Below are positions 480 through 17,775 of a stretch of 17,775 nt of DNA, one piece after another; position 1 is the first letter of the stretch, and every line of letters starts with the position of its first letter. The notes beneath the pieces are model-generated. The model saw only the letters and a list, made by a program, of their open reading frames with translations. It did no database searches and was not told the DNA's origin. A program made the translations under genes and the position numbers. The DNA comes from Delftia acidovorans NBRC 14950 (GTDB lineage Bacteria > Pseudomonadota > Gammaproteobacteria > Burkholderiales > Burkholderiaceae_C): positions 1 through 17,775 of the forward strand of contig NZ_BCZP01000047.1 in NCBI RefSeq assembly GCF_001598795.1. Direction: 5' to 3'.

Positions 480-480
480 G

Positions 481-664: not shown

Positions 665-684
665 GAAAGGGCCGAAGCCCCTTC
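665..684 (-). terminator. Stem-loop with UUCG tetraloop just after the capsid gene stop (attenuator or RNA-stability element)
   Basis: The minus strand reads GAAGGGGC-TTCG-GCCCTTTC. That is an 8-bp stem including one G-U pair. It lies 5 nt downstream of the capsid TAA (689-691). Only a weak T tract follows. Confidence 0.4.
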
Positions 685-688
685 TTGG

Positions 689-1930: not shown

Positions 1931-1956
1931 GGTGTGGCCCTTTCAGAAATGACAAA

Positions 1957-1973
1957 GCCGCCTCAAGGGCGGC
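1957..1973 (-). terminator. Hairpin between the protease and capsid genes
   Basis: gccgcc (1957-1962) pairs with ggcggc (1968-1973) around a 5-nt loop. On the minus strand it is followed by TTTGTCATTT. Confidence 0.4.
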
Positions 1974-1998
1974 CGATTGGGTTGGTGGTTGCTGTGGT

Positions 1999-2844: not shown

Positions 2845-4063
2845 TGCTTGCTTTCTTCCCCGAGGGGTCGCCCAGGGTGTTGAACTTCGGGTTCGGGTCT
2901 GCCGGGTACTCAGCCAGGTCGCGGACCTCGTTGGCCGTGTGCCATGGCTGGTGGCCACCGGCGCCCAGCGCCTTGGCGAAGTAGTCCGCCTGGTCCTTGA
3001 GCGTGCCGCGCAGCAGCGCGCGCTCGTTGAACTTGAAGTAGTAGTGCCCCCGCTCCGCATCCGTCAGCAGCGAGCGCTCCAGGGCCTGCTCCCAGGCCGT
3101 GAAGCGCGGCGTCATCGTGAACTGCACGAAGAAGATGGCCAGTTGCTCGATGCCGGAGCCCCAACTGGTGTCATCCATCATCAGCAGCGGGCGGGGCACG
3201 CCGTACAGGCGGGCCACCTCCTCGATCTGGTGGTTTCGACTCTCCAGCTGCTGGCCGTCCTTGGCCGTCGAGGTGAAGGGATTGGCCTTGGCCCCCTCCT
3301 CCGCGATCATCCATTTGTTGACGTTCTCGGAGCCGCTCAGCCCCTGGTCCAGCGAGGCCCGCATGCGGTTGTACGCCTGGTCTGAGAGAGCATTCGGCGT
3401 CTCGATAGCGCCCCCAGCCATCACGCCGGTCTTGAAGATGTTGCCGGCCGCGCGCTGCGCCTGCTCAGCCAACTCGAAAACCTCGGTGGACAGCTGCCGC
3501 TTGGATAGACCCAGAATGCCGTCGAAGGAAAGTTCGCGCACATGCAAGATCTCCTCCTGGTCCAGCGTGATCTGACCGCCGTTCTCCGTCGTGCAGCGGT
3601 ACTGCATGCGCCAGTTGCTGCCCAGCTTCGCGTCCACCTTGCCCTTTTCGAAGGGGATCAGGTGGATCGGGCGGCCAGCGGCGCGGATGATGCGCGCGTA
3701 TGCGTTGCCCTCGGTCTCCAGCAGCAGCTGCATCTGGCTCTTGAACTCCATCGGCGTCTGCCAGGGGTTCGGCTTGTAGCGCAGCAGCTTGTGCGCCGGG
3801 TGATCCTTGGCAACCTCCTTGTCGTCGCCGGCTCGGTAAAGGCTGGTGGGCAGCATGCCCAGGCCATTGCCGATCAGCGAGAGACAGCGCAGCGCCGAGG
3901 TGTTGCGCAGCATCCGGTTTGATGCACCCATCTGGCCATTGCGGATGAACTCCAGCAGCGCCGGGTCGTCCAGGCCCTGGAAGGTGATTCCTTCCGCACT
4001 GGCTCGCGGGCGCGACTGAGCCTCCGGCCCATCTCGCCGGAACAGCTTGTCGAATATCTTCAT
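2822..4063 (-). CDS. Portal protein, HK97 family
   Basis: 413 aa, located between TerL and the protease. Portal-like stretches include NPWQTPMEF, LLETEGNAYA and FFVQFTMTPRFTAWEQ. Confidence 0.85.
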   Translation of the reverse strand: MKIFDKLFRRDGPEAQSRPRASAEGITFQGLDDPALLEFIRNGQMGASNRMLRNTSALRCLSLIGNGLGMLPTSLYRAGDDKEVAKDHPAHKLLRYKPNPWQTPMEFKSQMQLLLETEGNAYARIIRAAGRPIHLIPFEKGKVDAKLGSNWRMQYRCTTENGGQITLDQEEILHVRELSFDGILGLSKRQLSTEVFELAEQAQRAAGNIFKTGVMAGGAIETPNALSDQAYNRMRASLDQGLSGSENVNKWMIAEEGAKANPFTSTAKDGQQLESRNHQIEEVARLYGVPRPLLMMDDTSWGSGIEQLAIFFVQFTMTPRFTAWEQALERSLLTDAERGHYYFKFNERALLRGTLKDQADYFAKALGAGGHQPWHTANEVRDLAEYPADPNPKFNTLGDPSGKKASNEPQATT

Positions 4064-4074
4064 GTGGTCGTGCC

Positions 4075-5784: not shown

Positions 5785-5794
5785 CCGGCACCTC

Positions 5795-6091
5795 CTACTG
5801 CAGGTTCGGCGGTGTGGCCGACGCGTACTTTCCGCTCTTTGCCCGGGTAGCGGCAGCGCCAGCGCGCGCAGCCTTCTTGCCCCCGTTCTCGCCGCGGCGA
5901 ACCTCGGCCGACAGCAGAGCTTTCGCCGCGTCGATCCGCAGCTTGGCCTCCGTGCCGCTGTCGTTCATCACCGCCTTCAGGAACTTGGCGGGCTCATCGT
6001 AGGTGACGCTCAGGTTCAGGTATGCGGGCTCTTTCGGTGGACGGCCGGCGCCCGGACGCGCGCCGCCGCTGCGCCCTTTGACTCCGGACAT
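5795..6091 (-). CDS. terS: Terminase small subunit
   Basis: ORF 5795..6412 trimmed to the ATG at 6089-6091, with GGAG 6 nt upstream. MSGVKGRSGGARPGAGRPPK...LRIDAAKALL is a typical small-terminase opening. It lies immediately upstream of terL. Confidence 0.75.
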   Translation of the reverse strand: MSGVKGRSGGARPGAGRPPKEPAYLNLSVTYDEPAKFLKAVMNDSGTEAKLRIDAAKALLSAEVRRGENGGKKAARAGAAATRAKSGKYASATPPNLQ

Positions 6092-6336
6092 AGCAACTCC
6101 ATTTGAATTATTTGAATAGGGGGAAATTTCTTGCGCGTGCGGAACAGGGCGGTCTAGAGGCCGAAAGCCTGGGAACTTTGCATAGCCCCCTCTCGTCCCA
6201 TCACATTGCCGATGGCCCTGGCACGCGCATAGAAGCCCTGTACAGGGCAAATGCCAGTCGGCTGACGTGCGACGGTATGCCCGCCCTACGCCTGTCCAGA
6301 GCCATCTATCATCAACACCGACCAGAAGGAACACCG

Positions 6337-6618
6337 ATGCAATACGCAATCTTCGACACAGGCCCGGGTTTCCTACAGTGGATGGGCGAAGCCGCTGATC
6401 CCGCTTCTGCAATCAAAGCGCTGCACGAGGAAGCCAAAGAGTTCGGCGCGGATGATCAAGACCCGAGAGAAGCATTCATCGTCATCTACGAGCTGCAAGA
6501 TCAAGAGGTCGCGAAGCTGGACGAGCTGCTCACGAAGGGTGAGCACATCTATCAGGACTTCGAAGACGAAGGCCAAGAGTTCACATTGGCAGAGGTTCGC
6601 AAGATCGCGGGGCTATAA
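6337..6618 (+). CDS. Small, strongly acidic hypothetical protein (93 aa), oriented opposite to the late operon
   Basis: ORF 6103..6618 trimmed to the ATG at 6337, preceded by AAGGA 7 nt upstream. It begins MQYAIFDTGPGFLQW. By my count it has 22 Asp+Glu against 7 Lys+Arg. Its TAA (6616-6618) abuts the HNH gene's TAG (6613-6615). Confidence 0.65.
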   Translation: MQYAIFDTGPGFLQWMGEAADPASAIKALHEEAKEFGADDQDPREAFIVIYELQDQEVAKLDELLTKGEHIYQDFEDEGQEFTLAEVRKIAGL

Positions 6619-6951
6619 GCCTCGGCGCGCTTCCTCGCGCTGCTTGTCTCGGGAATGGTGGGTGGCGCACAGCGGATCCCAATTGCTGTGATCCCAGAAC
6701 AGGGTCTGATCGCCTCGATGTGGCAACCGGTGATCGACCACCGTCGCGGCTTCCACCCTGCCCTCTGCCTGGCAGCGGATGCACAGGGGATGGGAGCGCA
6801 GGAAGCCCTCGCGGGCCTTCTGCCACTTGTAGCCGTAGCCGCGCTGTGCTGCCGTCTGATCGCTGGTGCGCCAGCTGCCGGCCTGCATCGTCTGCACGCG
6901 GCGGGTGTCCAGCACGGGCAGCGTACTCTTCAATGTCTGGAGCTTTGACAA
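6613..6951 (-). CDS. HNH endonuclease, terminase-associated type
   Basis: CIRCQAEGRVEAATVVDHRLPHRGDQTLFWDHSNWDPLCATHHSRDK shows the CxxC...DH...N...CxxHH pattern. The start as drawn is TTG and is uncertain. Confidence 0.85.
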   Translation of the reverse strand: MSKLQTLKSTLPVLDTRRVQTMQAGSWRTSDQTAAQRGYGYKWQKAREGFLRSHPLCIRCQAEGRVEAATVVDHRLPHRGDQTLFWDHSNWDPLCATHHSRDKQREEARRGL

Positions 6952-7028
6952 AGGATGCCGCCTGCCTATGGCCGCCAGTTAAGATGCATCTTTAAACCTA
7001 CTGGGATAAATTTTTGAACAATGAACGT

Positions 7029-7253
7029 ATGGATGTGCTCGCCGGTGAACTGAGCGCGCTGGCCACTGTCGTGGTGCGGCTGATTGAGACCATCACACCT
7101 GAGCAAGCGGCCCACGCTCATGAGGCGCTTCTGATTGACCGAGACGCCATCCGCATCGGAACTTCTACCGGTGGCCCAGAGTTGGAGCTCGCGACAACCG
7201 AACGCGCTCTTGACAACTACCTTTCCCTGCTCATTGACGTAGCAGAGAGCTGA
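7029..7253 (+). CDS. Hypothetical small helical protein (74 aa from the ATG; the track used a TTG at 7014)
   Basis: Codon third positions are biased to G/C in this frame, and a 7-bp hairpin follows the stop. There is no clear Shine-Dalgarno sequence. No family was recognised. Confidence 0.45.
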   Translation: MDVLAGELSALATVVVRLIETITPEQAAHAHEALLIDRDAIRIGTSTGGPELELATTERALDNYLSLLIDVAES

Positions 7254-7442
7254 GCGATTCGGCGGCGAGTGCCGTTGCACACTCGCAAGCCTCGCATACC
7301 CCATGCTATCCATGCTTTGCATGGATACGTCTGGTGGCGGCGGAAACGAGAAAGCCACCCGAAGGTGGCGCAACCACTGTGCGAACATGTGTACTCCCCC
7401 GGTCTGGGATGAGTCACTTAACGTTCTCTATAGACTGGTCCG

Positions 7443-7811
7443 ATGACCGAGCCATTCGACCACGCCGATACAAACGCCATCCGGCTGCGGCTACGCAGCT
7501 ACGAGGAGCGTTGCACGCTACTGTTGCGCGCAATCGGCGACAACAAAACGGTCACAGCACGGGTCGAACAGATCAGGGACCAATACATCGCGCTCAAAAG
7601 AGATCTCAAGGCCGATGCCGCTGCCACGCGTAGCGCCGGGAAGGACCCAGCTTGCGCAGTTGCTGAATTTTTTTCCCCTGCAGTTAATGAGGCCGCTCTG
7701 CACCTGAAGCCAACCTCCGGCTCTCATCCGATAGCGGGAAATTGGTTGTCTGCGGTGTATGACGCGCGGGTTGATATCTGCCACTATCTTGCGCAGCTTG
7801 ACCGCAACTGA
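7443..7811 (+). CDS. Hypothetical protein (122 aa)
   Basis: Clean ORF with coding-like composition. TATAGA lies 8 nt upstream of the ATG, so the mRNA may have a very short leader. The gene is convergent with the 7943..8266 gene, with hairpins in between. No family was recognised. Confidence 0.5.
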   Translation: MTEPFDHADTNAIRLRLRSYEERCTLLLRAIGDNKTVTARVEQIRDQYIALKRDLKADAAATRSAGKDPACAVAEFFSPAVNEAALHLKPTSGSHPIAGNWLSAVYDARVDICHYLAQLDRN

Positions 7812-7837
7812 CCAAGTAGCGCCAGCGGGATCACTGC

Positions 7838-7870
7838 AAAAAAAACCTACCAAGGCAAGCCAGGGTAGGT
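7838..7870 (-). terminator. Intrinsic terminator for the minus-strand gene 7943..8266
   Basis: acctacc (7845-7851) pairs with ggtaggt (7864-7870). The A8 run at 7838-7845 gives a U tract on the minus-strand RNA. Confidence 0.65.
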
Positions 7871-7872
7871 AA

Positions 7873-7892
7873 CTGCTGGACGGATCCAGCAG
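7873..7892. terminator. Perfect 8-bp hairpin between convergent genes
   Basis: ctgctgga (7873-7880) pairs with tccagcag (7885-7892) around the loop cgga. There is no U tract on either strand. Confidence 0.45.
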
Positions 7893-7942
7893 GGGAGGGA
7901 TACGAAGCGTATCAAGAAGAATTTAAGGCAGGTAGGACGCCT

Positions 7943-8266
7943 TCAGGCCTCACGCGCAGCTGTCGCAATACCCATTGCCTCTCCGGCTCCAGCGCCTATC
8001 AAGCCTCCAAGGGCGCCGCCAACAAAAATCCCTGCAGGGCCAGCAGCTACGGCGCCGACTCCCGCCCCCACCACTGCGCCAACCACCATGAAGCCGGCCA
8101 CCATGGTTGACTTTAATTCCCGGACTGACTCCTCTTTGGTCATCCGAATCTGTGCCAAGGGATCAGGATCTTGCGAGGGCACACCATGCCCCTGAACAGC
8201 TTGCTCAGCAAGATCCGGGTCAACAGGCCGCCCCAGCAGGTACTTAAGCGAAATAGATGAAGTCAT
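7943..8266 (-). CDS. Small membrane protein with a C-terminal glycine-zipper 2-TM region (107 aa)
   Basis: ORF 7943..8311 trimmed to the ATG at 8264-8266, preceded by GAGGAG. The C-terminus is MVAGFMVVGAVVGAGVGAVAAGPAGIFVGGALGGLIGAGAGEAMGIATAA, made of GxxxG/AxxxG repeats. Confidence 0.65.
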   Translation of the reverse strand: MTSSISLKYLLGRPVDPDLAEQAVQGHGVPSQDPDPLAQIRMTKEESVRELKSTMVAGFMVVGAVVGAGVGAVAAGPAGIFVGGALGGLIGAGAGEAMGIATAAREA

Positions 8267-8418
8267 GGCGCTCTCCTCAGAGATGAGGAAGATAGAAGCA
8301 CCTCGCCTCACCTTCGTTGTACTCCCTGCTGCTCACTCGCACCTGTGGTCCAGTCAGCCGGCGCAGCGTAAGGGAAAGCGCTCTCCCTCCTTCGCACCAT
8401 TCATTCGCTCTGTACCCG

Positions 8419-8451
8419 GAAAAACAAAGCCCGCGGGCATTGCCAGCGGGC
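8419..8451 (-). terminator. Intrinsic terminator about 125 nt downstream of the Q-like gene (tR'-like)
   Basis: agcccgc (8427-8433) pairs with gcgggct (8445-8451). On the minus strand it is followed by TTGTTTTT. Confidence 0.7.
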
Positions 8452-8569
8452 TAGTGATCTTTAGGCGCGTGTTTCCCCATCGCTTCAATGTCTTGCCAGA
8501 CTCACCGCCTGGGGACGTTTACCGGGGTGAGCGCGGGCGGGATCGTTTGCGCCTGCGCTCTAGGCACGC

Positions 8570-8597
8570 AGTATACATCACCCTTTCCCGGCTGCAA
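8570..8597 (-). promoter_or_regulatory. Candidate late promoter (PR'-like) overlapping the 3' end of the Q-like gene
   Basis: The minus strand reads TTGCAG (8592-8597), a 16-nt spacer, then TATACT (8570-8575). The -35 matches the consensus at only 3 of 6 positions. Confidence 0.35.
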
Positions 8598-9234
8598 CCA
8601 CCTTCAGGCCCTTCATCCGCCTGAGCGCGGCGATGGTGCCCGAGCGGGCGCGGTCCACATGTTCAGCGATGTGCTCGGAGATCAGCAGGCCCTCTGCTTC
8701 GTGTGGCACTTCGCGGGTGCCGAAGCCCTTGCAGGTCTCGCAGATCGCCATCTCGCCCAGCTTGACCCCGCCACAGCCTGGGCACTTGCGGTCGCACCAC
8801 CACAGCAGCACGTCGGTCAGCTTGGCACGGGCGTCCTTGATGCCCTGCGCCCGCACCCAGGGCAGAAAGCCGGCGTGCGCATCCGTCAGGCGGGTGAAAT
8901 GCGGCAGGCCGCGCAGGATCTCCATGCGGCGCTCCATGTGCCAACGGCCCTCGGCCACGCGGGCGCCCACCATGTCGAGTCGGCCCCTGCTCTTTCGCGG
9001 AAGCTGCTCGGCCACGCGCTGCAGCTGCTCATCGGTCAATGGGCGCGGCTTCTCGCGGCGGTCCCATTCGCAGATCAGTTGCTGGACCAGCCGGCCCAGG
9101 CCTGCACGCTGGATGCCAGCGGCGATTAGGTAGTCGGCGTCGCCGCGCTTCTCGATATTGACGGAGAGGTCGCCGCTCTTGCTCGCGCTGGTCAAGCGCT
9201 CTTCGATGGTGGCGCGCGTTGGTGCTTCGATCAT
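8578..9234 (-). CDS. Lambda-Q-like late-gene antiterminator candidate (CxxCxGxG zinc-finger protein)
   Basis: 218 aa. KCPGCGGV and ICETCKGFG are two CxxCxGxG repeats, as in lambda Q (CRDCHGTG and CGRCKGVG). It is the last gene of the early-right operon and is followed by a promoter-plus-terminator pair. Confidence 0.55.
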   Translation of the reverse strand: MIEAPTRATIEERLTSASKSGDLSVNIEKRGDADYLIAAGIQRAGLGRLVQQLICEWDRREKPRPLTDEQLQRVAEQLPRKSRGRLDMVGARVAEGRWHMERRMEILRGLPHFTRLTDAHAGFLPWVRAQGIKDARAKLTDVLLWWCDRKCPGCGGVKLGEMAICETCKGFGTREVPHEAEGLLISEHIAEHVDRARSGTIAALRRMKGLKVVAAGKG

Positions 9235-9250
9235 TGGTTGCTCACTTTCT

Positions 9251-9511
9251 TCAGTTGCCCATCAAGCGCTGCACGGTCACATTCAGCGCGTCCATTTCGT
9301 CCATCTTTCGGATTGCCCAGGAGCGGCGCTGTCCGTGCAGACCCAGCAGCGGGCCACGGTGGCAGCTCTCGCACAGCGCAATGCACACGTACTGGCGGTG
9401 CTGCTTGACGTGGTGCGCCTCGCTCGGACCTGGGGCATCGCACACACTGCAGGGCAGCTCCTTCACTGCGGCCAGGTGCTCGCGCTCGCGGTCGTTGAGC
9501 CTGTTCAGCAT
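9251..9511 (-). CDS. Ref-family (RecA-dependent) HNH-like nuclease
   Basis: ORF 9251..9574 trimmed to the ATG at 9509-9511, preceded by GGAGGTG. REREHLAAVKELPCSVCDAPGPSEAHHV...ALCESCHRGPLLGLHG matches the pattern of short prophage Ref proteins. Confidence 0.6.
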   Translation of the reverse strand: MLNRLNDREREHLAAVKELPCSVCDAPGPSEAHHVKQHRQYVCIALCESCHRGPLLGLHGQRRSWAIRKMDEMDALNVTVQRLMGN

Positions 9512-9846
9512 GGGGACACCTCCACGATCACGCGACCGCCCGGGGTGTCGCCGCGCGCAATGCCCAAGCTCCAATGCTTGTCATCCACGCCCAGCACGTC
9601 CGCCAGCCCGTCCAGGCCGGCTTTCATGCGCGCGAGAGCGTTGTCGAGGTCGTAGGCGCGGCGAGTCGGCGCGTGGAACGTCAGCGCCAGGTGCAGCTTC
9701 TGTACCGGAATGCGGCGCACGCCCTGCTGCACGGCGGCGTATGCGCAGGCGTGGCGGTAGTTCTTCTTGGCCTTGGCCAGGCTCGCCCAGTGCAGACGGG
9801 CGTTCGGGCTCAGCTCCTTCGGGGGCCATGGGAGTTCGAACTTCAC
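9505..9846 (-). CDS. rusA: RusA-family Holliday junction resolvase
   Basis: It begins (GTG)KFELPWPPKELSPNARLHW and contains AYDLDNALARMKAGLDGL. A GTGA overlap joins it to the upstream gene. Confidence 0.85.
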   Translation of the reverse strand: MKFELPWPPKELSPNARLHWASLAKAKKNYRHACAYAAVQQGVRRIPVQKLHLALTFHAPTRRAYDLDNALARMKAGLDGLADVLGVDDKHWSLGIARGDTPGGRVIVEVSPC

Positions 9847-10109
9847 GATGCGGCCACTCCCTTGCCGGCCTGCACCATGTCGCCCAGCTCGTCGGAGGCC
9901 TTGACCCCGTACTGCAGTTCCAGCGCCAGCTGCGCGTAGTGGATGACCTTCTGCAGGTCCTGGGCGCCGCCCTTGGACTTGTGCCGGGTCACGTACTTCA
10001 CGATGTTCCCCTGGAAGAAATCGAGGTCGTTCGCGTGGATGTACTGGATCGGCTGGATGGCGCAGCCCTTGTAGTGGTCGCCGCCTGCTTGCGTGTCGAG
10101 CGCGCTCAT
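9843..10109 (-). CDS. DUF3310-family phage protein
   Basis: QAGGDHYKGCAIQPIQYIHANDLDFFQGNIVKYVTRHKSKGGAQDLQKVIHYAQL matches the DUF3310 signature. Confidence 0.75.
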   Translation of the reverse strand: MSALDTQAGGDHYKGCAIQPIQYIHANDLDFFQGNIVKYVTRHKSKGGAQDLQKVIHYAQLALELQYGVKASDELGDMVQAGKGVAAS

Positions 10110-10405
10110 GCTGTCACCGCCTTCGCTTGGCCGAGAGAGCGCAGGATCGCGTCGCGGACCACGCCATACACAGCCGCACGGCGCCTGCTACTGCCTTGAG
10201 CGCCGTAGAGCACGACATTTGTTGGCCGGTCGAGCTGCACCACCCACTTTGGCTCTTCGTGACCTGCTCCAATGGCGCGCTGCCCATCAGGGAGATAGAA
10301 GCCTTCAACTGGTGCGCGATACAGCACCGTCAACGTGTGCCCATCGCCAGAAGTTCCAGAGTTTTCGACTACGGCGCGGTCGCCTGGATTGCAGTTCAAC
10401 TTCAT
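10106..10405 (-). CDS. Hypothetical protein (99 aa)
   Basis: ORF 10106..10477 trimmed to the ATG at 10403-10405, which forms an ATGA overlap with the dnaB stop. Its stop forms an ATGA overlap with the next gene. Confidence 0.6.
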   Translation of the reverse strand: MKLNCNPGDRAVVENSGTSGDGHTLTVLYRAPVEGFYLPDGQRAIGAGHEEPKWVVQLDRPTNVVLYGAQGSSRRRAAVYGVVRDAILRSLGQAKAVTA

Positions 10406-11814
10406 TCCATCCCCCTGCTTCGGGCAGCGCCAGCGGGCGCAGCGATTGGACTCAGGGTCGGCACATCGCCACCCCACGATTCAAAAGTGGTGGTCTCGCC
10501 CCGGTAGTACAGGTGCATGTCACCGGTGCGGCCTTGGCGATTCTTGGCGATGCGCAACATGGCGTAGTTGGTCCACTTGGGATCCAGCTGCAGGTTGGCC
10601 ATGATCGGGCGGTGGATGAACGCCACCACGTCGGCGTCCTGCTCTATGGCCCCCGAGTCGCGAAGCTCATGCAGGCCCGGGGGCTGCATGGCCTTCTCGG
10701 CCGCGCAGCGGTTCACCTGGGCCAGGCAGACCACAGCGATATCCAGCTCCTTGGCCAGGGCCTTGAGGCCTCGGCTGATCTCTTCGATCTGGTAGGCGCG
10801 CGACTGCTTCTTGTCCACTCCCTCCATCAGCCCGATGTAGTCCACGATCAGCACGTCGAGCTTCTTGGTGCGCTTGAGCTTGCGGGCCATGCTACGGACC
10901 TGCTGGATGTTCAGCCCGCTGCGGTCGCTCACGAACCAGCGCAGGTTGCGCGACATCTCCACGGCGTCCACGATGCGGCTGTAGTCGAGCGTCTCGCCAC
11001 TAGCGTTGGGCTTGTTGGGGCGCTTGATTGCGCTGATGGCGATGCGGCCCAGGATCGCCGCCTGGCGGTCGCGCACATCGTTGTGCGGCATCTCCATGGA
11101 CAGCATGCCAACGCACTGCTGCGAGGCCATCGACAGGCCCACAGTCATGGCAAACGCTGTCTTGCCCATGGAGGGGCGCGCGCCGATCACGATCAGGTTT
11201 CCACGAACCAGGCCGCCGTCGAGCATCTCATCGAAGCCATAGAGGCCGGTGGGCATGCCCGAGACCTTGCCCTCTTGGCGAGCCTCCAGCAGCTCGGTGT
11301 GAGCCATGGCTGCGGTGTAGGCATCCACCCAGTCATCCTCGCCGCCCTGCACTTCCAGCGCCTGGATGGCGGTCTGCGCCTGGTCGATGCGGTCAGACAC
11401 CGGGCCGTCACCATGGGCCAGCTCGGAAATCTTGAAGCCCACGGCACGCAGCTGGCGAGACTTGTGCAGGTCCACCAGGGTGTCCACATGGCGATGGATA
11501 CCCCTGGCGCTGAAATCGTTGCTCGACAGCACGCCATGTACGTAGCCAGAGTCCATCTCGTCCGCAAGCGCCAGCACCACCGACACCACGTCCATGCCGC
11601 GACGGGCCAGGATCTGCTGCTGAAGCACCTGGAAAATCCTGCGATGCTCATCGCCCGCGAAGCAATCGGCGGTCAGCCGGTCGCAGATCTCGTCGTAAAC
11701 GTCAGGGAAGTTCGCCAGCACTGACAGCACGGCTTGCTCAGTGCCATCGGACGACAGCACAGGCGCGGCCTGCGCCTCTGGGAAATCCTCGAAGGGAGCC
11801 TCGAAGCCGTTCAT
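10402..11814 (-). CDS. dnaB: Replicative DNA helicase, DnaB family
   Basis: 470 aa. Walker A is GARPSMGKTAFAM and Walker B is LDVLIVDYIGLM, and a DnaB-type N-terminal domain is present. An ATGA overlap joins it to the initiator gene. Confidence 0.92.
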   Translation of the reverse strand: MNGFEAPFEDFPEAQAAPVLSSDGTEQAVLSVLANFPDVYDEICDRLTADCFAGDEHRRIFQVLQQQILARRGMDVVSVVLALADEMDSGYVHGVLSSNDFSARGIHRHVDTLVDLHKSRQLRAVGFKISELAHGDGPVSDRIDQAQTAIQALEVQGGEDDWVDAYTAAMAHTELLEARQEGKVSGMPTGLYGFDEMLDGGLVRGNLIVIGARPSMGKTAFAMTVGLSMASQQCVGMLSMEMPHNDVRDRQAAILGRIAISAIKRPNKPNASGETLDYSRIVDAVEMSRNLRWFVSDRSGLNIQQVRSMARKLKRTKKLDVLIVDYIGLMEGVDKKQSRAYQIEEISRGLKALAKELDIAVVCLAQVNRCAAEKAMQPPGLHELRDSGAIEQDADVVAFIHRPIMANLQLDPKWTNYAMLRIAKNRQGRTGDMHLYYRGETTTFESWGGDVPTLSPIAAPAGAARSRGME

Positions 11815-12659
11815 GCCACCTCCCGCTGGTAGTTGCCCTGCAGGACCTTCGAGAAGTTGTCGGACTTCACCAGCCAGCCGAGGTCAGCCGTCCAGCTGCG
11901 GTCGTTGGCGCCGGTCAGGTGTGGGCACTTCTCGGCGACGTAGGCAAAGAACCGGCCGAACCACTCCAGCGCCGACGCCCTGTCCGTCGCGTAGGGCTGA
12001 CCAGCATGCTCGCCCTTGGTCTTCTTCGCTGTCAGCACCCAGACCCAGCGGGCACGCAGGCTCTTGGCCCGCTGGCCGTCCCACAGCTCCGCCTTTGGCT
12101 GAGGCAGCGCAGGCAGGTGCATGGCAAAAAGTTTGATGATCTCGCCGTGCGGGCAGTCGGGCAGCTCGCTGGCCGACAAAGAAGCGTTAGCTTCTTCTTT
12201 ATCTGTATCTGTATCTGTATCTGTACGCGTGACATTCGTACCTGTCACGCGTGACGCATCCGTGCCTTCTTCGTGACCTTGCGTGACATCGTTGCCTGGC
12301 GCGGCTTTCTCGGCCTTTTGGCGTTCGCGCTGGCGTTGCTTGCGCACGGCTGCCGTGGTGTCCACGTCACTCTGCATTTGCAGCACCGCCCACTTCACGG
12401 GCTGCAGCGTTTCCTGCTCGATCAGGCCCACTTCGGCCAGGCGGCGGGCCACCTCTTCCAGGCTGCGCACGTCCAAGCCCAGCTTCACGGCAACCTTGCG
12501 CATCAGCAGGCTCGGGGTGTCGGCCTTGTCCAGCAGGCCCTCGCCTTTCAGGCACAGCAGCGCCACGAAGTGCCACCGATCCTCGAAGGCCAGCAGCTTG
12601 AGCTTGTCGTCATCGACCATCCGCGTGTACAGGCGGAGCCATGGAAGTCGCTTGCTCAT
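11811..12659 (-). CDS. Replication initiator (lambda-O-like role): N-terminal winged-helix-like domain, low-complexity linker, C-terminal domain
   Basis: 282 aa, located immediately upstream of dnaB. The linker reads DVTQGHEEGTDASRVTGTNVTRTDTDTDTD and is encoded by repeat DNA. The exact family was not recognised. Confidence 0.7.
   Translation of the reverse strand: MSKRLPWLRLYTRMVDDDKLKLLAFEDRWHFVALLCLKGEGLLDKADTPSLLMRKVAVKLGLDVRSLEEVARRLAEVGLIEQETLQPVKWAVLQMQSDVDTTAAVRKQRQRERQKAEKAAPGNDVTQGHEEGTDASRVTGTNVTRTDTDTDTDKEEANASLSASELPDCPHGEIIKLFAMHLPALPQPKAELWDGQRAKSLRARWVWVLTAKKTKGEHAGQPYATDRASALEWFGRFFAYVAEKCPHLTGANDRSWTADLGWLVKSDNFSKVLQGNYQREVA
12201..12224. repeat. Hexanucleotide microsatellite (ATCTGT)x4 inside the initiator gene
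   Basis: Read directly as atctgt atctgt atctgt atctgt. It encodes the TDTDTDTD linker on the minus strand. Confidence 0.95.
12225..12289. repeat. CGTGAC iteron-like cluster (candidate ori) inside the initiator gene
   Basis: ACGCGTGAC occurs at 12225-12233 and 12247-12255. GCGTGACAT occurs at 12227-12235 and 12281-12289. TCGTGAC occurs at 12271-12277. A 12-bp palindrome GTCACGCGTGAC lies at 12244-12255. Confidence 0.5.
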
Positions 12660-13120
12660 TGCGAACCCCCACGGATGGATTGCAGGAATTCGCCTGCGGC
12701 CTTCATCAGCGCCAGCACGAACGGCTCCATGGTGCGGCGGTCCTCGGCGCAGAAATGGCCATCCGCCGCCGCAGCAGAGGTCACGGTGACGGTCTTGCCC
12801 GCCTTGCCGGCCAAGGCCAGGAACAGGCGCATGGCGTCCGCAGGGTCGCGGGGCTCCAGCTCGAAGTCCATGGGCACCTGGCCGACGAGATGCGACAGGG
12901 CAAACACCGTGCGCTTGGCCTGGGCCAGCACGATGATCTCCAGAACGGCGCTCATGGACGGTGGTGCGGATTCGTGGTCGGGGTTGATCCCGTTGGCCAG
13001 CGTGTTGCCGTTCATGTCCAGATGCTTGGCAATGGCACTGATGCCGCCAGGGAACTCCTTGGCGTCTGCCTGCAGCGCCAGGAACAGCGCGCGGTGGGTT
13101 TGCTTGATGGGTCTACGCAT
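12656..13120 (-). CDS. Phage regulatory protein, 186-CII (CP76)-like
   Basis: ORF 12656..13468 trimmed to the ATG at 13118-13120. ISAIAKHLDMNGNTLANGINPDHESAPPSMSAVLEII parallels 186 CII (AERAGMNVQTLRNKLNPEQPHQFTPPEL). An ATGA overlap joins it to the initiator gene. Confidence 0.6.
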   Translation of the reverse strand: MRRPIKQTHRALFLALQADAKEFPGGISAIAKHLDMNGNTLANGINPDHESAPPSMSAVLEIIVLAQAKRTVFALSHLVGQVPMDFELEPRDPADAMRLFLALAGKAGKTVTVTSAAAADGHFCAEDRRTMEPFVLALMKAAGEFLQSIRGGSQ

Positions 13121-13270
13121 AGCGAATGCCTCGTGAGATTCGCCTACCGCTGGCAGGCTGGGGAAACGAAACTCGCTGCATGAAAACCAAAACAACGAGT
13201 GAGAGAGGTGCCCGCCACACCCTGGGCTATGCTGGAAGCTCCTACACAACCAGCGCCAAGGAGGGCGGAC

Positions 13271-13486
13271 ATGAAAATCGACAAGGAACTGATCGGGCCA
13301 GCAGCCACACTGGCCGCCGCGATCCTCTCGAAGGTCGAGCGACAGCATTCGGAGTTCGATCGGGACGTCATCGCCAGCGCGTTCGAAGAGGCGTACTTCA
13401 CGCTGCTGGAGGGCATCCAGCGGGTCGAGAAGGAGCTGGCTCGGACAGAAAAGCCAACCGAGTACCAAGTGCTCTTCCCGAAGTAG
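13271..13486 (+). CDS. Small hypothetical protein (71 aa), oriented opposite to the early-right operon
   Basis: ORF 13199..13486 trimmed to the ATG at 13271, preceded by AAGGAGG. Third-position G/C is high. It begins MKIDKELIGPAATLAAAILSKVERQHSEF. Confidence 0.6.
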   Translation: MKIDKELIGPAATLAAAILSKVERQHSEFDRDVIASAFEEAYFTLLEGIQRVEKELARTEKPTEYQVLFPK

Positions 13487-13625
13487 GCTGCTCAGCTTCC
13501 AGCCGATCCCGTATGCCCCGCTTCATGCGGGCGTACAGGCTGGAAGCACGGAACCGGCGCCTGTCGCGCAGGCGCTGCACGGACTCAGGAATGGGGCCGC
13601 CAAAGCGGTATCGCTGCTCAGCCAT
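13398..13625 (-). CDS. Small Arg-rich hypothetical protein coupled to the cro-like gene; the 3' end overlaps the convergent gene
   Basis: The ATG at 13623-13625 is preceded by AGGAGG and overlaps the cro-like stop. It begins MAEQRYRFGGPIPESVQRLRDRRRFRASSLYARMKRGIRDR. G/C bias at third positions is lost over the last ~30 codons, where it overlaps 13271..13486. Confidence 0.4.
   Translation of the reverse strand: MAEQRYRFGGPIPESVQRLRDRRRFRASSLYARMKRGIRDRLEAEQPTSGRALGTRLAFLSEPAPSRPAGCPPAA
13495..13547. other. Long imperfect hairpin (about 20 paired positions) between the cro-like and CII-like genes
   Basis: gcttccagcc (13495-13504) pairs with ggctggaagc (13538-13547). An inner stem pairs gtatgccccgc with gcgggcgtac around the loop ttcat. 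Confidence 0.6.
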
Positions 13626-13875
13626 GGGTGGCCTCCTGGATCTGGGGGGTGGTGGGTTGCGCCAGCTCGGGCAGAGGGGCGTCGCCGTACAGGTGATCGA
13701 ACGTCAGCACCAGCCCTAGCCCGCCTGCGTACTCGATGAGCCGCCGCGCACGCGGGGTGGGCATCATCTGCCCGTGCTCGTAGTAGCCAATGTTCCCCTG
13801 GGTGCAGCCGATGACTTGGCCGAGCGCCTGCTGGGTGAGGCCAAGACGCTTGCGAATGGGCTTGAGGTTCTTCAT
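13618..13875 (-). CDS. Cro-like XRE-family HTH protein
   Basis: It begins MKNLKPIRKRLGLTQQALGQVIGCTQGNIGYYEHG and is divergent from the CI-like gene. The ATG lies 7 nt after the -10 element, so the mRNA is probably leaderless. The track start at 13887 falls inside the -10. Confidence 0.8.
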   Translation of the reverse strand: MKNLKPIRKRLGLTQQALGQVIGCTQGNIGYYEHGQMMPTPRARRLIEYAGGLGLVLTFDHLYGDAPLPELAQPTTPQIQEATHG

Positions 13876-13882
13876 GCCCAAT

Positions 13883-13921
13883 ATCATAAGTCGGACTGAT
13901 AACTAATTCAACAGTCCGACT
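13883..13921 (-). promoter_or_regulatory. PR-like promoter with two 9-bp palindromic operators AGTC(C/G)GACT
   Basis: The minus strand reads TTGAAT (13906-13911), a 17-nt spacer, then TATGAT (13883-13888). The operators lie at 13889-13897 (in the spacer, touching the -10) and at 13913-13921 (1 nt upstream of the -35). Confidence 0.75.
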
Positions 13922-13958
13922 GTTTTGAATTCATGAGCCCTACTAATACCCTCAGTGA

Positions 13959-14480
13959 ATGCCCGCTTTGCCCCTGACCCTCGAACAAAAAGAAGACGCC
14001 GCGCGCCTGAAAAAACTCTTTCTGACCTGGAAGACGGACCGCAAAGCCCGGGGCGAGCCCGCGTCTCAAGACGCCTTCAGCGACCTGGTGGGCATCACTC
14101 AAAGCGCCGTCAGCCAGTACCTGAACGGCGCCATCCCACTGAACCCCGCTGCCGCGGCGAAGTTCAGCAAGGTGCTCGGCTGCCAGATCAGCGAGTTCAG
14201 CAGCACTGTTGCCAGCCTGGCCAGCGAAATCGGAGAGGCGGCAACTCCGATGGCGTCGAGTGATTCGCCTCCGCGCATGGACATCACAGAGCTGTCCCGA
14301 GCGGAGGCGCAGCTTGTACTGACGTTCCGCGAACTACCCGAATCAGCCCGGGATCAACTCGCGGCCTTCGCCGGCCAACTCCACAAGGAGTCGGGCACCA
14401 AAGCTCAGCGCGCGGCCACGGCGCCGAAGCCAGCAGCCGCGAAGCGTTCTCGCAGAGTGGCCGAGCCAGCCGACCACTAA
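13959..14480 (+). CDS. Lambda-CI-like repressor: N-terminal HTH domain and no S24 peptidase domain
   Basis: LKKLFLTWKTDRKARGEPASQDAFSDLVGITQSAVSQYLNGAIPLNPAAAAKFSKVLGCQISEFS parallels the lambda CI N-terminal domain. The C-terminal ~80 aa lack the Ala-Gly and Ser-Lys peptidase motifs. There is no SD sequence, and ACTAAT lies 11 nt before the ATG. Confidence 0.8.
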   Translation: MPALPLTLEQKEDAARLKKLFLTWKTDRKARGEPASQDAFSDLVGITQSAVSQYLNGAIPLNPAAAAKFSKVLGCQISEFSSTVASLASEIGEAATPMASSDSPPRMDITELSRAEAQLVLTFRELPESARDQLAAFAGQLHKESGTKAQRAATAPKPAAAKRSRRVAEPADH

Positions 14481-14719
14481 ATTACCGCTCGACCAGCGCC
14501 CAGTACGTGCGGAATTTCATCCCAGTTGAGAACCGGGACCAGCTGAGTAGATCGCCGCCTGACCAACGCGCCCAGCGCCACCAGGTCTTCGATCTCCTCC
14601 GGCGTCAGCTTTGGGGACAGCTTCGCCACCACCTCCGCATACACGTCGATCACGAAACGGGGCTTGGGAAGCGGCCCGTTGTGCTCCTTGATCATCTCGA
14701 TCAACTGCGCTGCATCCAT
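14477..14719 (-). CDS. Hypothetical protein (80 aa), second gene of the SOS-box operon
   Basis: The ATG at 14717-14719 is preceded by AAGGAGGA. G/C bias at third positions is strong in this frame. Its stop overlaps the CI-like stop codon (14477-14480). Confidence 0.65.
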   Translation of the reverse strand: MDAAQLIEMIKEHNGPLPKPRFVIDVYAEVVAKLSPKLTPEEIEDLVALGALVRRRSTQLVPVLNWDEIPHVLGAGRAVI

Positions 14720-15005
14720 TTGTCCGATCCTCCTTGACCGCCTCTAAGCCGCGGGCTTGTATCAACTCCCCTATCGCAAGCTGCCGATAGGGCTCACCGA
14801 AAAGCAATGTGTGCGCACAGGCACAACACATCGCCGCCAATCCAGCCAGCTGGTGCGCTGTGGGCGAGCTCTCGCCCCGCTCCCATTTGGAGATGGTCTG
14901 GCGCGTAACCTGCAGCGCTTCAGCCAAATCATCCTGTGACAGCGTCACCTTCGTGCGGGCTGCCTTCAGTCGTTGGCCGAACAGCTTCTTTGAATCGTGG
15001 TTCAT
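14517..15005 (-). CDS. XRE-family HTH protein; 3' boundary doubtful
   Basis: ORF 14517..15083 trimmed to the ATG at 15003-15005. The HTH core is LFGQRLKAARTKVTLSQDDLAEALQVTRQTISKWERGESSP. The frame stays open about 200 nt into the next gene, but there it lacks G/C bias at third positions. Confidence 0.6.
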   Translation of the reverse strand: MNHDSKKLFGQRLKAARTKVTLSQDDLAEALQVTRQTISKWERGESSPTAHQLAGLAAMCCACAHTLLFGEPYRQLAIGELIQARGLEAVKEDRTNGCSAVDRDDQGAQRAASQAPFRDRRVCGGGGEAVPKADAGGDRRPGGAGRVGQAAIYSAGPGSQLG

Positions 15006-15013
15006 AAGAATAC

Positions 15014-15029
15014 CTGTTGTTTTATACAG
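15014..15029. promoter_or_regulatory. LexA (SOS) box CTGT-N8-ACAG overlapping the promoter of the HTH gene
   Basis: ctgt (15014-15017), tgttttat, acag (15026-15029). On the minus strand this reads CTGTATAAAACAACAG, which contains TATAAA, and it lies 8 nt upstream of the ATG at 15005. Confidence 0.7.
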
Positions 15030-15077
15030 TTTTGCACAGACCCTGACCCGGTGCAACAGCAATTTGCCCGCAGCGGC

Positions 15078-15117
15078 ACGCAACGCAACGCCCCGTTGCG
15101 CAACGCACAGTTGCGTT
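15078..15117. repeat. Cluster of five GCAACG/CGTTGC units forming overlapping alternative hairpins
   Basis: Read directly as acgcaacgcaacgccccgttgcgcaacgcacagttgcgtt. Stem 15084-15090 pairs with 15094-15100 (7 bp). Stem 15099-15104 pairs with 15110-15115 (6 bp). Confidence 0.8.
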
Positions 15118-15179
15118 CCCAGCAGCCCAATGCGGATGCCGTAGGCGTGCTATCAAAATAAGTTACACAGAGAAAAATT

Positions 15180-15219
15180 AGCCGGACTGTTGACTTTTTT
15201 TATAAGTCCGACTGATAAT
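15180..15219 (+). promoter_or_regulatory. PL-like promoter with the same operator layout as PR
   Basis: TTGACT (15190-15195), an 18-nt spacer, then GATAAT (15214-15219). Operators are AGCCGGACT at 15180-15188 and AGTCCGACT at 15205-15213, in the same positions relative to the -35 and -10 as at PR. Confidence 0.7.
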
Positions 15220-15315
15220 TCATCTCAGCGCACCACAGACAGGTTGCGCTGGGCCAAGTGATCGGACCGAGCCCCTCCCCTGGATCCTTAAAAAATGAGA
15301 GCGGATAGAAGAGGC

Positions 15316-15783
15316 TCAGTGTGCAAGCTTTGCGGCAAGGCGCTCCAGCAGGGTGACGTGAGCAAAGTCCTTGGAATCCCTGTACCCCATCTCCATGCGA
15401 GCCATGTTGGTCGCGGGGTTAGCCAGCCAAGTCAGTCCGGTTTCGCCTTCGCGCTGCAGGCGAATGATGGCGGTGTTCAGTTCGTCATCTTTTAGACGAC
15501 TTTCCTGCTCACGAAGCTCCAAAAATTTGCACTTCATCTGCTTGAAGTGCAACTCCTTGGTTGTTGGGTTTAGCAGGAGCGAAACCAGGGCACATGCAGC
15601 AGCCACGGCACTGGCGATACCCATGGCCGTCGGGTACTGACCAACTACGGCAGCTACAGCAGAACACCCTGCCACGAGTTGCACGAAGTTGGTCCAAAAG
15701 GCGGTTCGCCGATGCAACACCTCTTGGAGGCAGTTGTACCAGTAGCCATACCGCACCGCGTGAATTAAGAGATATCGCTCCAC
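15316..15783 (-). CDS. 2-TM membrane protein with a C-terminal coiled-coil region; SLATT-like topology (tentative)
   Basis: 155 aa with a GTG start. The two hydrophobic helices are FWTNFVQLVAGCSAVAAVVGQY and AMGIASAVAAACALVSLLL, followed by KELHFKQMKCKFLELREQESRLKDDEL. The gene lies antisense to, and downstream of, the PL-like promoter. Confidence 0.6.
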   Translation of the reverse strand: MERYLLIHAVRYGYWYNCLQEVLHRRTAFWTNFVQLVAGCSAVAAVVGQYPTAMGIASAVAAACALVSLLLNPTTKELHFKQMKCKFLELREQESRLKDDELNTAIIRLQREGETGLTWLANPATNMARMEMGYRDSKDFAHVTLLERLAAKLAH

Positions 15784-16415
15784 GTTGAAATGCCTTTCTT
15801 TTCCGTCGGCGGTGGCGATGGAGGCGCGCTTGGCGGAACTTGGGTTTTGACGTTGCCAACTTCACTGTTGGTGATATTGCGCATGGGGCCCCTTCTGTTT
15901 GAAGTTTGTGACGTAGGAAATCCAAATGTAACGCAGCAAGCGGGCCCCACCCTCTTCTATCCGCTCTCCCAAGAGATAGCGTAATTGCCAGTTGCAGGGC
16001 GTCCAGCAGCCGGCGCGGGTCAATCCCGTCCCCCATCCTGCGTTATGCAGCCAAGGGCAAGCCGAAGGCCTACGGGCAGGAGGCACGCGGAAAGAAGTGC
16101 AACGCGTGAGACCAGAGCACTGCCGAATCGATGCCGGCGAAAGCATCCCAACCAGGCAGCCACGCGCTGCGAAGGAGAGCACATGCGAGATTGATAGGCC
16201 GGCAGACCCGGCCGCGACTTGGCCGCGCAGTCTCGCGGACATGCGATAGGCGAGTTACCGGGCATGGAGCCATCAGGCACCGGGTACTTGGGAGTGGCGA
16301 CCCCTCAACGCAATCAGTGAAGCCATAGCATGAGACCGGGAAACCGGCGCCGCCCCGAGCGTCATCGGGGCAAACCAAGGGGTTCAGCGCCAGCTGCAGA
16401 GCCACTTGGTTTGAA

Positions 16416-16482
16416 GTCGCGTGCACCCCCTCGGCGGGGTCGGATCTGCAAAAGGTTTGGTGCACACCAGCGACTCTTTTTT
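16416..16482 (+). terminator. Intrinsic terminator inside the non-coding tract
   Basis: gtcgc-gtgcacc (16416-16427) pairs with ggtgcac (16459-16465) and gcgac (16470-16474). TCTTTTTT follows, with the T run at 16477-16482. Confidence 0.55.
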
Positions 16483-16613
16483 CACCCACGGCGAAACCTG
16501 AGCCGCCAGAACGCTCAGGGATCACCCATGGAGGCCGCCATGTAACCGCACCTGCACCACAGAGCAAAGAGTTGATTTTGGGTTGTCCGCCCTGGCGACA
16601 TAAAAGGCCAGGA

Positions 16614-16726
16614 CCATCAAGAAAGAGCGCGGCACTGAAAAACTGCAACCGGGCGTGGAGCAAGGCAATCCGAGATGCCTCCACCGACAAACCGCAAACC
16701 GGGTGATCCGCTCTTTTTCTTGATGG
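16614..16726. repeat. 16-bp inverted repeat closing a 113-nt domain
   Basis: ccatcaagaaagagcg (16614-16629) is the reverse complement of cgctctttttcttgatgg (16709-16726), apart from a 2-nt TT bulge. Confidence 0.85.
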
Positions 16727-16970
16727 CAAATCGTGACAGGTACTTGCCCACCTGCAACCAGTGAAAGTCTGGCGCTTACACGCAGAGGGAAAGCCGGGGC
16801 GAACACGGCAGCCATCAATCCTCATCCCAGTTTCGCCGGGCCAGGGCCTTCACCACCACGCCATCTCTCCCTTGCGCGCCGCCATGCGGCACCGGCCTTT
16901 GTTCACGTCTCGCCCGCACCTCGCAGGCGTTTTGCTTTCGGCCCGATGCGGCCACAACCGGAGATCCCCC

Positions 16971-17657
16971 ATGGAAATCAAGATCGAATTGGACCTGCCC
17001 GCAATCGTCGCCCAGGCCGTCAGCGCCGAGCGCATCCAACCCATCGTAGACAAGGCCATTGCAGAAGCGGTCAAGGATGCAATCAACGATGCCACCGGCT
17101 ATCGCAGCAAGTTCCGCGATGCCATGAAAGAGCAGCTCAGCGAAGCCATGCCGCACGGCCTGCGGATTGATGACGTTGCCAAGTTCCAGCAGGTGCTCAA
17201 TGCAGCGGTTTCCAGCGCGGTGCAGGGCGAGAACGCGAAAGCCGTTCAGACGGCCATCTCGACTGCCGTGGGCACCTTCATGCCGGATCTTCCCTCAAGC
17301 ATCAAGTTGTCGGAATTGCTGCAGAGGGCGCGCAGCGGATTCCACAAGGAATCGCACGAAGCCTTCTTTGCTGAACTTGAAATGAGCGAGTTCAGCAGCG
17401 GTGGCGGCTGGCTTTCGCTTGACGACGACGAATCGCGACGCTACGCGCACTCCGCATCCATGAGGCTCGGGTTTGGCGATGACGGGCACGTCTTTTCTCT
17501 CCGGCTTGACGACAAGCTGGTAACGCCGCTGAGCATGCCCAACGCGGTTGGCGAGTTTGACGCCATCCTGCTCGCGCTGTACGTCGGTCGCACTACCCTG
17601 GAAATCGACATGGATGAGCACGACGTCAAGTCCGCCGCCAGCGAGCAATACGACTGA
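16971..17657 (+). CDS. Hypothetical protein (228 aa), first gene of the early-left operon
   Basis: ORF 16761..17657 trimmed to the ATG at 16971, preceded by GGAG 8 nt upstream. The upstream part of the ORF has junk-like composition. No family was recognised. Confidence 0.7.
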   Translation: MEIKIELDLPAIVAQAVSAERIQPIVDKAIAEAVKDAINDATGYRSKFRDAMKEQLSEAMPHGLRIDDVAKFQQVLNAAVSSAVQGENAKAVQTAISTAVGTFMPDLPSSIKLSELLQRARSGFHKESHEAFFAELEMSEFSSGGGWLSLDDDESRRYAHSASMRLGFGDDGHVFSLRLDDKLVTPLSMPNAVGEFDAILLALYVGRTTLEIDMDEHDVKSAASEQYD

Positions 17658-17661
17658 CCAA

Positions 17662-17684
17662 GCCGCCCACTGAGGCGGTTTTTT
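17662..17684 (+). terminator. Intrinsic terminator after the 16971..17657 gene
   Basis: gccgcc (17662-17667) pairs with ggcggt (17674-17679) around the loop cactga. A T tract follows, ending at 17684. Confidence 0.7.
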
Positions 17685-17724
17685 CATGCCCAGGCCCCAC
17701 GGGCCACATCCCCAGGAGATCCGC

Positions 17725-17775
17725 ATGCTGAGCTACGTGAACATCCACGGGCGGCCCGTGAGCGTCGCCCCCCCC
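17725..17775 (+). CDS. 5' end of a further plus-strand gene (17 codons, runs off the window)
   Basis: The ATG at 17725 is preceded by AGGAGATCCGC, the same RBS context as the 16971 gene. Translation so far is MLSYVNIHGRPVSVAPP. Confidence 0.4.
   Translation, partial: MLSYVNIHGRPVSVAPP

Follow-up and report, generated by a model that had tools for sequence, protein, structure and literature searches.

How does a prophage respond to DNA damage when its repressor is unable to cut itself? The question is raised by a stretch of 17,775 nucleotides from Delftia acidovorans NBRC 14950 (contig NZ_BCZP01000047.1, positions 1 to 17,775; hereafter the window), which is filled by a lambdoid temperate phage or prophage with a G+C content of about 62%. 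Here a CI-like repressor without a peptidase domain is convergent with a small operon behind a LexA box, in which a gene for an XRE-family helix-turn-helix (HTH) protein precedes one for a protein of 80 amino acids. An earlier note on this DNA had taken the arrangement for a likely antirepressor-type induction circuit. The explanation that we favor, and to which we give about an even chance of being right, is that the operon feeds the SOS signal into a lambdoid immunity switch built on a repressor incapable of self-cleavage, and that the small protein would inactivate CI non-proteolytically. What sequence and comparison show is how the module is built, that CI has no peptidase, that the LexA box is conserved, that the XRE gene and candidate operators occur together, that the small gene is under purifying selection, and that the module accompanies one type of CI.

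The repressor gene (13959–14480, plus strand) encodes 173 amino acids with HTH_3 (residues 36–80) as the sole Pfam domain, and Peptidase_S24 gave no Pfam match in this protein even at E 0.1. In a search of PDB sequences, the N-terminal 95 residues matched lambda CI at its residues 5–96 only (E 1.4e-8), and the same domain matches the CI proteins of many lambdoid phages. Neither Pfam nor the PDB sequence search found a match beyond the N-terminal domain, and tblastn of the C-terminus against GenBank phages returned nothing. About 80 residues follow the HTH domain, which is therefore followed by too short a segment to hold an S24 domain; this C-terminus is helical and carries the conserved motif ITELS..EAQLVL.FRELP...RD. 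The protein works like a CI, although it is not a full member of the lambda type, which it joins by N-terminal homology and from which it departs in having no S24 domain with its Ser/Lys dyad. In lacking an S24/LexA-type autocleavage domain, it agrees with the repressors of LexA-controlled antirepressor circuits. With HTH_3 alone in Pfam and an N-terminal match alone in PDB, the earlier description of a lambda-CI-type HTH without a LexA/S24 domain is confirmed.

CI-type operators, with the core AGTC-N-GACTG, are restricted to two places in the window. Those between cro and cI (13888–13924; repeat families D1/D2 and promoter scan) make up the right operator (OR) and consist of AAGTCGGACTGA (13888–13899) and the perfect palindrome AACAGTCCGACTGTT (13910–13924); they overlap a PR-like promoter on the minus strand, TTGAAT-17-TATGAT, called by the promoter scan. 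The others, AGCCGGACTGTT (15180–15191) and AAGTCCGACTGA (15204–15215), make up the left operator (OL) and sit within a rightward promoter, TTGACT-18-GATAAT, that forms the right edge of the immunity cassette (OL/PL, 15180–15219, plus strand; promoter and repeat scans). Exact copies of AGTCNGACTG occur in OR and OL only. The operon with the XRE and small genes is therefore placed within the immunity cassette, between cI and OL/PL.

The LexA box, found by motif scan at 15014–15029, is a perfect CTGT-N8-ACAG (CTGTTGTTTTATACAG; CTGTATAAAACAACAG on the coding strand). It is the only perfect match to this pattern in the window, and also the only CTG-N10-CAG with an AT-rich spacer. The box covers a −10 element, TATAAA (15021–15026), and ends 8 nucleotides upstream of the XRE start codon. 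Delftia belongs to the Comamonadaceae (Betaproteobacteria), and CTGT-N8-ACAG is the published betaproteobacterial SOS box according to a passage in PMC6595937 that cites Sanchez-Alberola 2015. Taken alone, one such box carries no significance: the expectation is 0.23 per window, and at least one was present in 41 of 200 shuffles.

Related modules were recovered in the window clade (L001-L022) and in the contexts L005-8, L013, L023, L025/L044-46, L027/28/33, L029, L030/31, L035 and L036. In all of them CTGT-N8-ACAG with an AT-rich spacer (CTGT-N8-CCAG in L025/L044) precedes the XRE start by 8–20 nucleotides; in loci that have no XRE gene, it precedes the small gene by 82–117 nucleotides. The box is thus conserved across the window clade, L005, L013, L023, L025/L044, L027, L029, L030, L035 and L036, lineages whose small proteins are 32–61% identical and whose intergenic DNA is no longer alignable; measured against the small protein of the window, identity goes down to 32–39%. 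About 0.002 boxes are expected per 150-nucleotide region, scaled from the window estimate, and repeated chance occurrence is therefore excluded. Because the box keeps the same place in at least ten diverged lineages, two of them XRE-less, SOS control of this small-protein family of Comamonadaceae prophages is well supported. The perfect box that the earlier note had described as the only one it found in the window, covering the operon's promoter, is thus conserved in related loci as well. As in LexA-controlled antirepressor circuits, a host-type LexA box would lie over the promoter of the candidate gene.

Two further observations concern such boxes in relatives. In L029 (800–917), the letters that directly follow the LexA box, GTATGCTGCTTGA, are similar to those at the beginning of the L001 XRE gene, GTATGCTCATGAAC, so that the arrangement without XRE seems to derive from the two-gene module by deletion. 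In relative L015, and probably in L022 too, there is a second near-consensus LexA box, CACTGTATATGTGTACAGTA (16062–16081 in L015). It stands after a terminator-like GC hairpin with a T-run and before a three-gene cassette (203, 165 and 202 amino acids) that is not in the window and whose last product is apparently membrane-spanning.

The small gene occupies 14477–14719 on the minus strand, and reading of the sequence places a Shine-Dalgarno element, AAGGAGG (14729–14735, minus strand), 9 nucleotides before its ATG. The convergent operon of an XRE and an 80-amino-acid gene that the earlier note had drawn is present with both genes where it put them, but the XRE gene (14517–15005, minus strand; HTH_3 E 3.7e-13) has no stop codon ahead of the small gene. 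Its open reading frame (ORF) continues to 14517 for a total of 162 codons and overlaps the small gene by 203 nucleotides in a different frame. In relatives, the XRE ORF is 162, 137 or 103 amino acids long. Within the overlap, variable columns are distributed by codon position as 12/7/37 in the 80-amino-acid frame, which is equivalent to 37/12/7 in the XRE frame. Since variation is dominated by third positions in the small frame only, the XRE tail is unconstrained read-through and not a domain, and the functional part of XRE would comprise about the first 95–100 codons (14710–15005). Judged by this pattern and its homologues, the small gene is under purifying selection. A fusion of XRE and small protein by programmed frameshifting was also considered and rejected, as a stop codon in the small frame lies 9 codons ahead of the ATG and the small gene has a strong Shine-Dalgarno element of its own; the variable XRE ORF length and the unconstrained tail also speak against it.

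The overlap has consequences for annotation. NCBI keeps the stop-less 162-amino-acid XRE ORF and omits the 80-amino-acid gene, a conflict that is also relevant to L022, and the Prodigal-type gene calls of Logan and ENA contigs show the opposite, with the 80-amino-acid gene called and XRE missed. The small gene is largely invisible in NCBI/RefSeq-style annotation because the stop-less XRE ORF masks it.

What kind of protein does the small gene encode? An AlphaFold2 model (16-sequence alignment, pLDDT 83) predicts four helices and an extended conserved segment, RS.QLVPVL, and Foldseek with this model found nothing below E=1 in PDB or BFVD. Searches of Pfam, PHROG (E≤0.01), NCBIfam and PADLOC gave no match, and 17 family members were equally matchless. 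The ANT, KilA-C or BRO domains that mark antirepressors of the Ant/KilAC/BRO type (Pfam ANT, Phage_pRha, P22 Ant) were not found in it. A family profile against PDB sequences produced chance calmodulin matches only (E about 0.1), tblastn against 50,697 GenBank phages produced none, and hhalign of the family to Tum of phage 186 (probability 0.1%, E 0.63) does not place it in the Tum/DinI-fusion family. The protein lacks a transmembrane segment and resembles none of the known SOS effectors, toxins or defense proteins. The remark in the earlier note that neither protein resembles known antirepressors is thus borne out, the small one being without a Pfam, PHROG, fold or Tum match.

Close relatives of the small protein are few, with four clusters among 5.8 billion proteins. 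An exhaustive hidden Markov model search of 1.8 billion representatives added about 12 proteins of 77–97 amino acids, and a profile search yielded 26 clusters, in which the few named members are all hypothetical proteins from Comamonas or Acidovorax (Comamonadaceae). The sole match in a scan of GTDB genomes was spurious, a 'VYAEVVAKL' stretch inside a 372-amino-acid Ramlibacter ORF, and metagenome and viral scans with distant subfamilies were mostly empty. This is a new, rare and genuine orphan family.

For the XRE protein, the nearest solved structure is the N-terminal domain of P22 C2, and it also gives matches to DicA/RstR-type and antitoxin HTH models, all of them weak, sub-threshold and generic. 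Upstream of the LexA-box promoter there are three GCAA-N7-TTGC palindromes (15053–15067, 15085–15099 and 15100–15114), the only matches in the whole window, where 0.26 are expected. Their centers lie at about −46, −78 and −93 relative to the predicted transcription start. All 10 lineages with XRE have from one to three copies at the same place, often 15 bp apart, and the two loci that lack XRE have no copy. Because their presence tracks that of the XRE gene, we take the palindromes as candidate XRE operators and XRE as a probable local autoregulator. The weak −35 and the proximal site near −46 are compatible with activation by XRE, and are no proof of it. Action of XRE at OR was also considered and rejected, the candidate operators being found only upstream of its own promoter. 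Two lineages do without XRE, which leaves the small protein as the constant SOS effector; it is also the candidate antirepressor.

It is the association with one type of repressor that points to CI as the target. A scan of IMG/VR for the CI family returned 27 loci. All 11 with the short helical C-terminus (L037-L046, L048), whose CI identity goes down to 51%, have the small gene downstream of cI and convergent with it; in L048/L035 a two-gene insertion parts the small gene from cI. By contrast, the loci that match the CI N-terminal domain only gave no small-gene match (0/16), and among the nine of these inspected, six have an S24 C-terminus (L047, L050, L052, L054, L055, L063), all without the module. 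In L036 the module adjoins a 154-amino-acid repressor with a different HTH domain and a C-terminus homologous to that of the window CI (hhalign 94.7%, E 6e-8); the shared C-terminal motif is therefore a possible target of the small protein. No other SOS route for inactivating a peptidase-less CI was seen in the window. Taken together, the association with CI type favors a role of the small protein as CI antirepressor, and the module is a probable variant of LexA-controlled antirepression.

The switch could work as follows. In the lysogen, CI (173 amino acids) would occupy OR and OL, and host LexA on the box over the −10 of the leftward promoter (about 15014–15050) would silence the operon; transcription from the repressor maintenance promoter (PRM), with no terminator after cI, possibly runs antisense across it. 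Upon DNA damage, LexA would be cleaved and the operon transcribed. The XRE message has an 8-nucleotide leader and no Shine-Dalgarno element and is therefore probably poorly translated. The XRE protein would bind the three sites just upstream and autoregulate the promoter, and the strong Shine-Dalgarno element would provide for an abundant 80-amino-acid protein. That protein would disable CI without proteolysis, most plausibly through the short helical C-terminal (oligomerization) region, and PR and PL would be freed. The same transcript would enter cI antisense, the stops overlapping and no terminator intervening, and CI synthesis should drop. The parts of this scheme that we infer are the promoter and the binding of LexA, whether XRE activates or represses its own promoter, the action of the small protein as an antirepressor and its target, and the antisense effect.

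A bolder version, which we consider rather unlikely, makes the module a self-contained SOS latch unique to Comamonadaceae prophages, joining self-activation of XRE, a small protein directed against a portable repressor C-terminus, and silencing of cI. Loss of LexA would permit an initial burst of transcription, upon which XRE would activate its own promoter via the three tandem operators. The small protein, of a fold without known relative, would bind a short helical C-terminal module combinable with different DNA-binding domains, and the convergent transcript would silence cI. If this version is true, the small proteins would make up a new family of antirepressors that act on a defined and transferable target domain and come with a feedback regulator of their own.

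There are, however, real counter-examples, and they weigh against the small protein being a strictly CI-specific antirepressor; some features of the locus itself also speak against the favored explanation. In L030/L031, a LexA-boxed small gene without XRE faces a 226-amino-acid repressor of the S24 type, which presumably cleaves itself. The small gene of L027 faces a 127-amino-acid repressor without significant similarity to the window CI, and that of L029 a Dam methylase/ParB-like operon, where no repressor is seen. The 11/11 co-occurrence may stem from the inheritance of a single cassette and need not mean that its parts are coupled in function. Accessory genes (morons) are classically found in the slot that follows cI. 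The insertion between the small gene and the CI homologue in L035 (3826–5143) encodes a 147-amino-acid membrane protein and a 289-amino-acid DUF6731 protein, and the 3′ junction of cI is therefore a cargo hot spot. As for regulation, L026 (a 1-kb contig) is the sole locus with the small gene but neither box nor XRE, and about 20% of shuffled windows would contain a box by chance. A simple sigma-70 scan called no promoter at the box, where the −35 is poor and about 8/12 positions agree by eye. Separately, the L027 repressor had been considered as a carrier of the CI C-terminal motif and was dropped because the similarity is not significant.

The rival that fares best has an appreciable, although clearly minor, chance of being correct. 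It holds that the small gene is an SOS-induced moron acting on the host or on competing phages and not on CI, and that the prophage is induced via something else; a division inhibitor, a modulator of RecA or LexA, an exclusion factor and an anti-defense factor are the roles that come into question, and the slot is that of lambda rexAB. Small proteins 32–38% identical do occur beside unrelated repressors, among them the S24-type one of L030/L031 that needs no antirepressor, and in L029 beside non-immunity genes. The same junction takes other cargo (the L035 insertion and one at 15295–16164 in the window), and the second LexA-boxed cassette of L015 is cargo located elsewhere. Yet cargo of this kind would leave the peptidase-less CI with no alternative DNA-damage route in the window for its inactivation, and would hardly account for the strict 11/11 association with the short-C-terminus CI and the absence of the module from S24-bearing CI relatives. 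Against this rival, too, the small protein has neither a transmembrane segment nor any likeness to known SOS effectors, toxins or defense proteins.

Could RNA alone throw the switch? The stop codons of cI and the small gene overlap by 4 nucleotides (14477–14480), no intrinsic terminator was detected near 14480 between the converging genes, and the corresponding gaps in relatives measure 13–31 nucleotides. The SOS-driven transcript should therefore run antisense through cI, and the PRM transcript antisense through the operon. A terminator-like hairpin with a T-run on the minus strand (13994–14008), within the 5′ end of cI, could stop transcripts of the LexA-box operon that read antisense through cI shortly before they reach OR/PR; it is possibly meaningless, and 2.7 such sites are expected by chance in the surrounding region. 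On this geometry one can build a switch in which SOS-derepressed transcription collides or pairs antisense with cI, CI synthesis falls, and the proteins just tune the promoter, all the more as that hairpin, the only terminator-like one on the minus strand there, would be reached only once the antisense transcript had crossed cI. We regard this as improbable, however, given that the small ORF is under purifying selection and its protein family conserved across lineages, that two genes intervene before cI in L035 and no repressor is faced in L029, and that pre-made CI stays stable unless inactivated.

Still less credit can be given to a toxin-antitoxin or abortive-infection pair, with XRE as autoregulating antitoxin and the small protein as a toxin released under SOS. 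An HTH gene first and a small partner second, translational overlap, operators arrayed ahead of the promoter that serves the pair, and weak sub-threshold XRE matches to antitoxin HTH models are all reminiscent of such pairs. Nevertheless, the obligate pairing and the recognizable toxin family of type II systems with an XRE antitoxin are both missing: the small gene stands without XRE in L029, L030 and L026, its product has no toxin, defense or Pfam match, and the XRE matches are to generic HTH models, well under family cut-offs. A LexA box present by chance, before an operon outside SOS control, is hardly credible, for whatever the frequency in shuffled windows allows for one box, this one recurs at the same place in at least ten diverged lineages with perfect or near-perfect half-sites and changed flanks.

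Antirepression of CI thus remains the preferred reading, and the circuit proposed in the earlier note is partly supported, namely in its peptidase-less CI, its conserved LexA box and its new protein family. That note had missed the dispensability of XRE, the XRE operator array and the possible antisense interference with cI.

Small LexA-controlled antirepressors acting non-proteolytically have precedents in GfoA/GftA of Gifsy, Tum of 186 and AntC of N15 (PMC3121763), and the layout described here appears functionally closest to the Gifsy antirepressors and to 186 Tum. In Salmonella Gifsy-1/-2/-3, the GfoR/GftR/GfhR repressors are paired with the LexA-controlled small antirepressors GfoA/GftA/GfhA (PMC3121763). 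Shared with Gifsy are a short uncleaved repressor and a LexA-boxed operon for a small protein (about half of the 146-amino-acid Tum) that is not first in the operon and that in Gifsy inactivates non-proteolytically; here it is a candidate antirepressor. There is no sequence similarity, however, and the small protein here has no PHROG match. In Gifsy, the operon (dinI-antirepressor-irsA) is found outside the immunity region, 1.3 kb past the replication genes, and its first gene is a DinI homologue rather than an XRE regulator with operators of its own. As for 186, its p95 promoter is LexA-repressed, with the box over the −10 and about 20 nucleotides upstream of the start codon (L034), its CI lacks autocleavage, and Tum blocks DNA binding by CI. 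Tum, however, has 146 amino acids with a DinI-like half and no XRE partner, and its gene is at the far end of the genome and not convergent with cI.

The combination of an XRE-type transcription factor (TF) and an orphan small protein of about 50–80 amino acids without predictable domain is also known from the TF-small ORF (smORF) modules of linear plasmid-like phages, VqmA-Qtip of VP882, TF72-smORF72 of Vibrio phage 72, and XRE-LuxR-smORF of Aeromonas (PMC10432266, Silpe et al. 2023). The module in the window does not belong to them. There, the smORF product non-proteolytically inactivates an autoproteolytic cI, whereas CI here has no peptidase, and the TF activates a divergent smORF independently of SOS, whereas here co-directional overlapping genes follow a single LexA-boxed promoter. 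Like lambda, the window has a CI between two operator sets, with an N-terminal domain homologous to lambda CI residues 5–96, a divergent Cro-like gene, and cargo between cI and OL. Lambda CI, however, has an S24 domain and is cleaved with RecA, and in the lambda order OL - rexB rexA cI - OR - cro, rexAB are co-oriented with cI and not SOS-controlled, whereas the cargo here is convergent with cI and LexA-boxed.

The remainder of the window carries further genes of the lambdoid phage. The Cro-like HTH gene (13618–13887, minus strand; HTH_3 E 1.7e-6, PHROG regulator matches) opens a rightward early operon that continues, by PHROG, with cII-like, O-like, DnaB, RusA and packaging/head genes; the minus strand thus carries the CII-like, O-like, DnaB and RusA genes together with those for small and large terminase, portal, protease and major capsid. 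A 75-amino-acid ORF between the Cro-like and CII-like genes (13398–13625, minus strand), which overlaps the cro stop by 8 nucleotides, had no match in Pfam or PHROG. The cassette from 13618 to 15294 is common to relatives as a single block, with mosaic breakpoints on either side. The window is close to a prophage of Delftia acidovorans: an NCBI protein of this species that shares 94% identity with the XRE ORF is encoded in an integrase-bearing prophage on a 120-kb contig. Megablast of the region against GenBank phages found no match. Directly downstream of PL, positions 15295–16164 form an 870-bp insertion relative to all relatives, the left part of which is flanked by a perfect 18-nucleotide inverted repeat (15297–15314 / 15951–15968). 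It encodes a 155-amino-acid protein with two transmembrane segments (15316–15783, minus strand) that matches phrog_11791 (E 6e-10) and, weakly, SLATT_1 and the PADLOC '2TM effector', and it looks like small mobile cargo or a defense-type moron.

So far, induction by LexA-controlled antirepressors has been a matter of a few enterobacterial phages, with an unrelated protein in each. The module described here adds a further candidate family, betaproteobacterial and orphan in sequence and fold, and it has features absent from the known systems, such as a co-transcribed putative XRE autoregulator with an operator array, a position inside the immunity cassette, and a terminator-less convergence on cI. 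If the favored explanation is true, the small protein would be aimed at a short C-terminal module of the repressor, and the module would provide a point of access to prophage induction in Delftia, Comamonas and Acidovorax.

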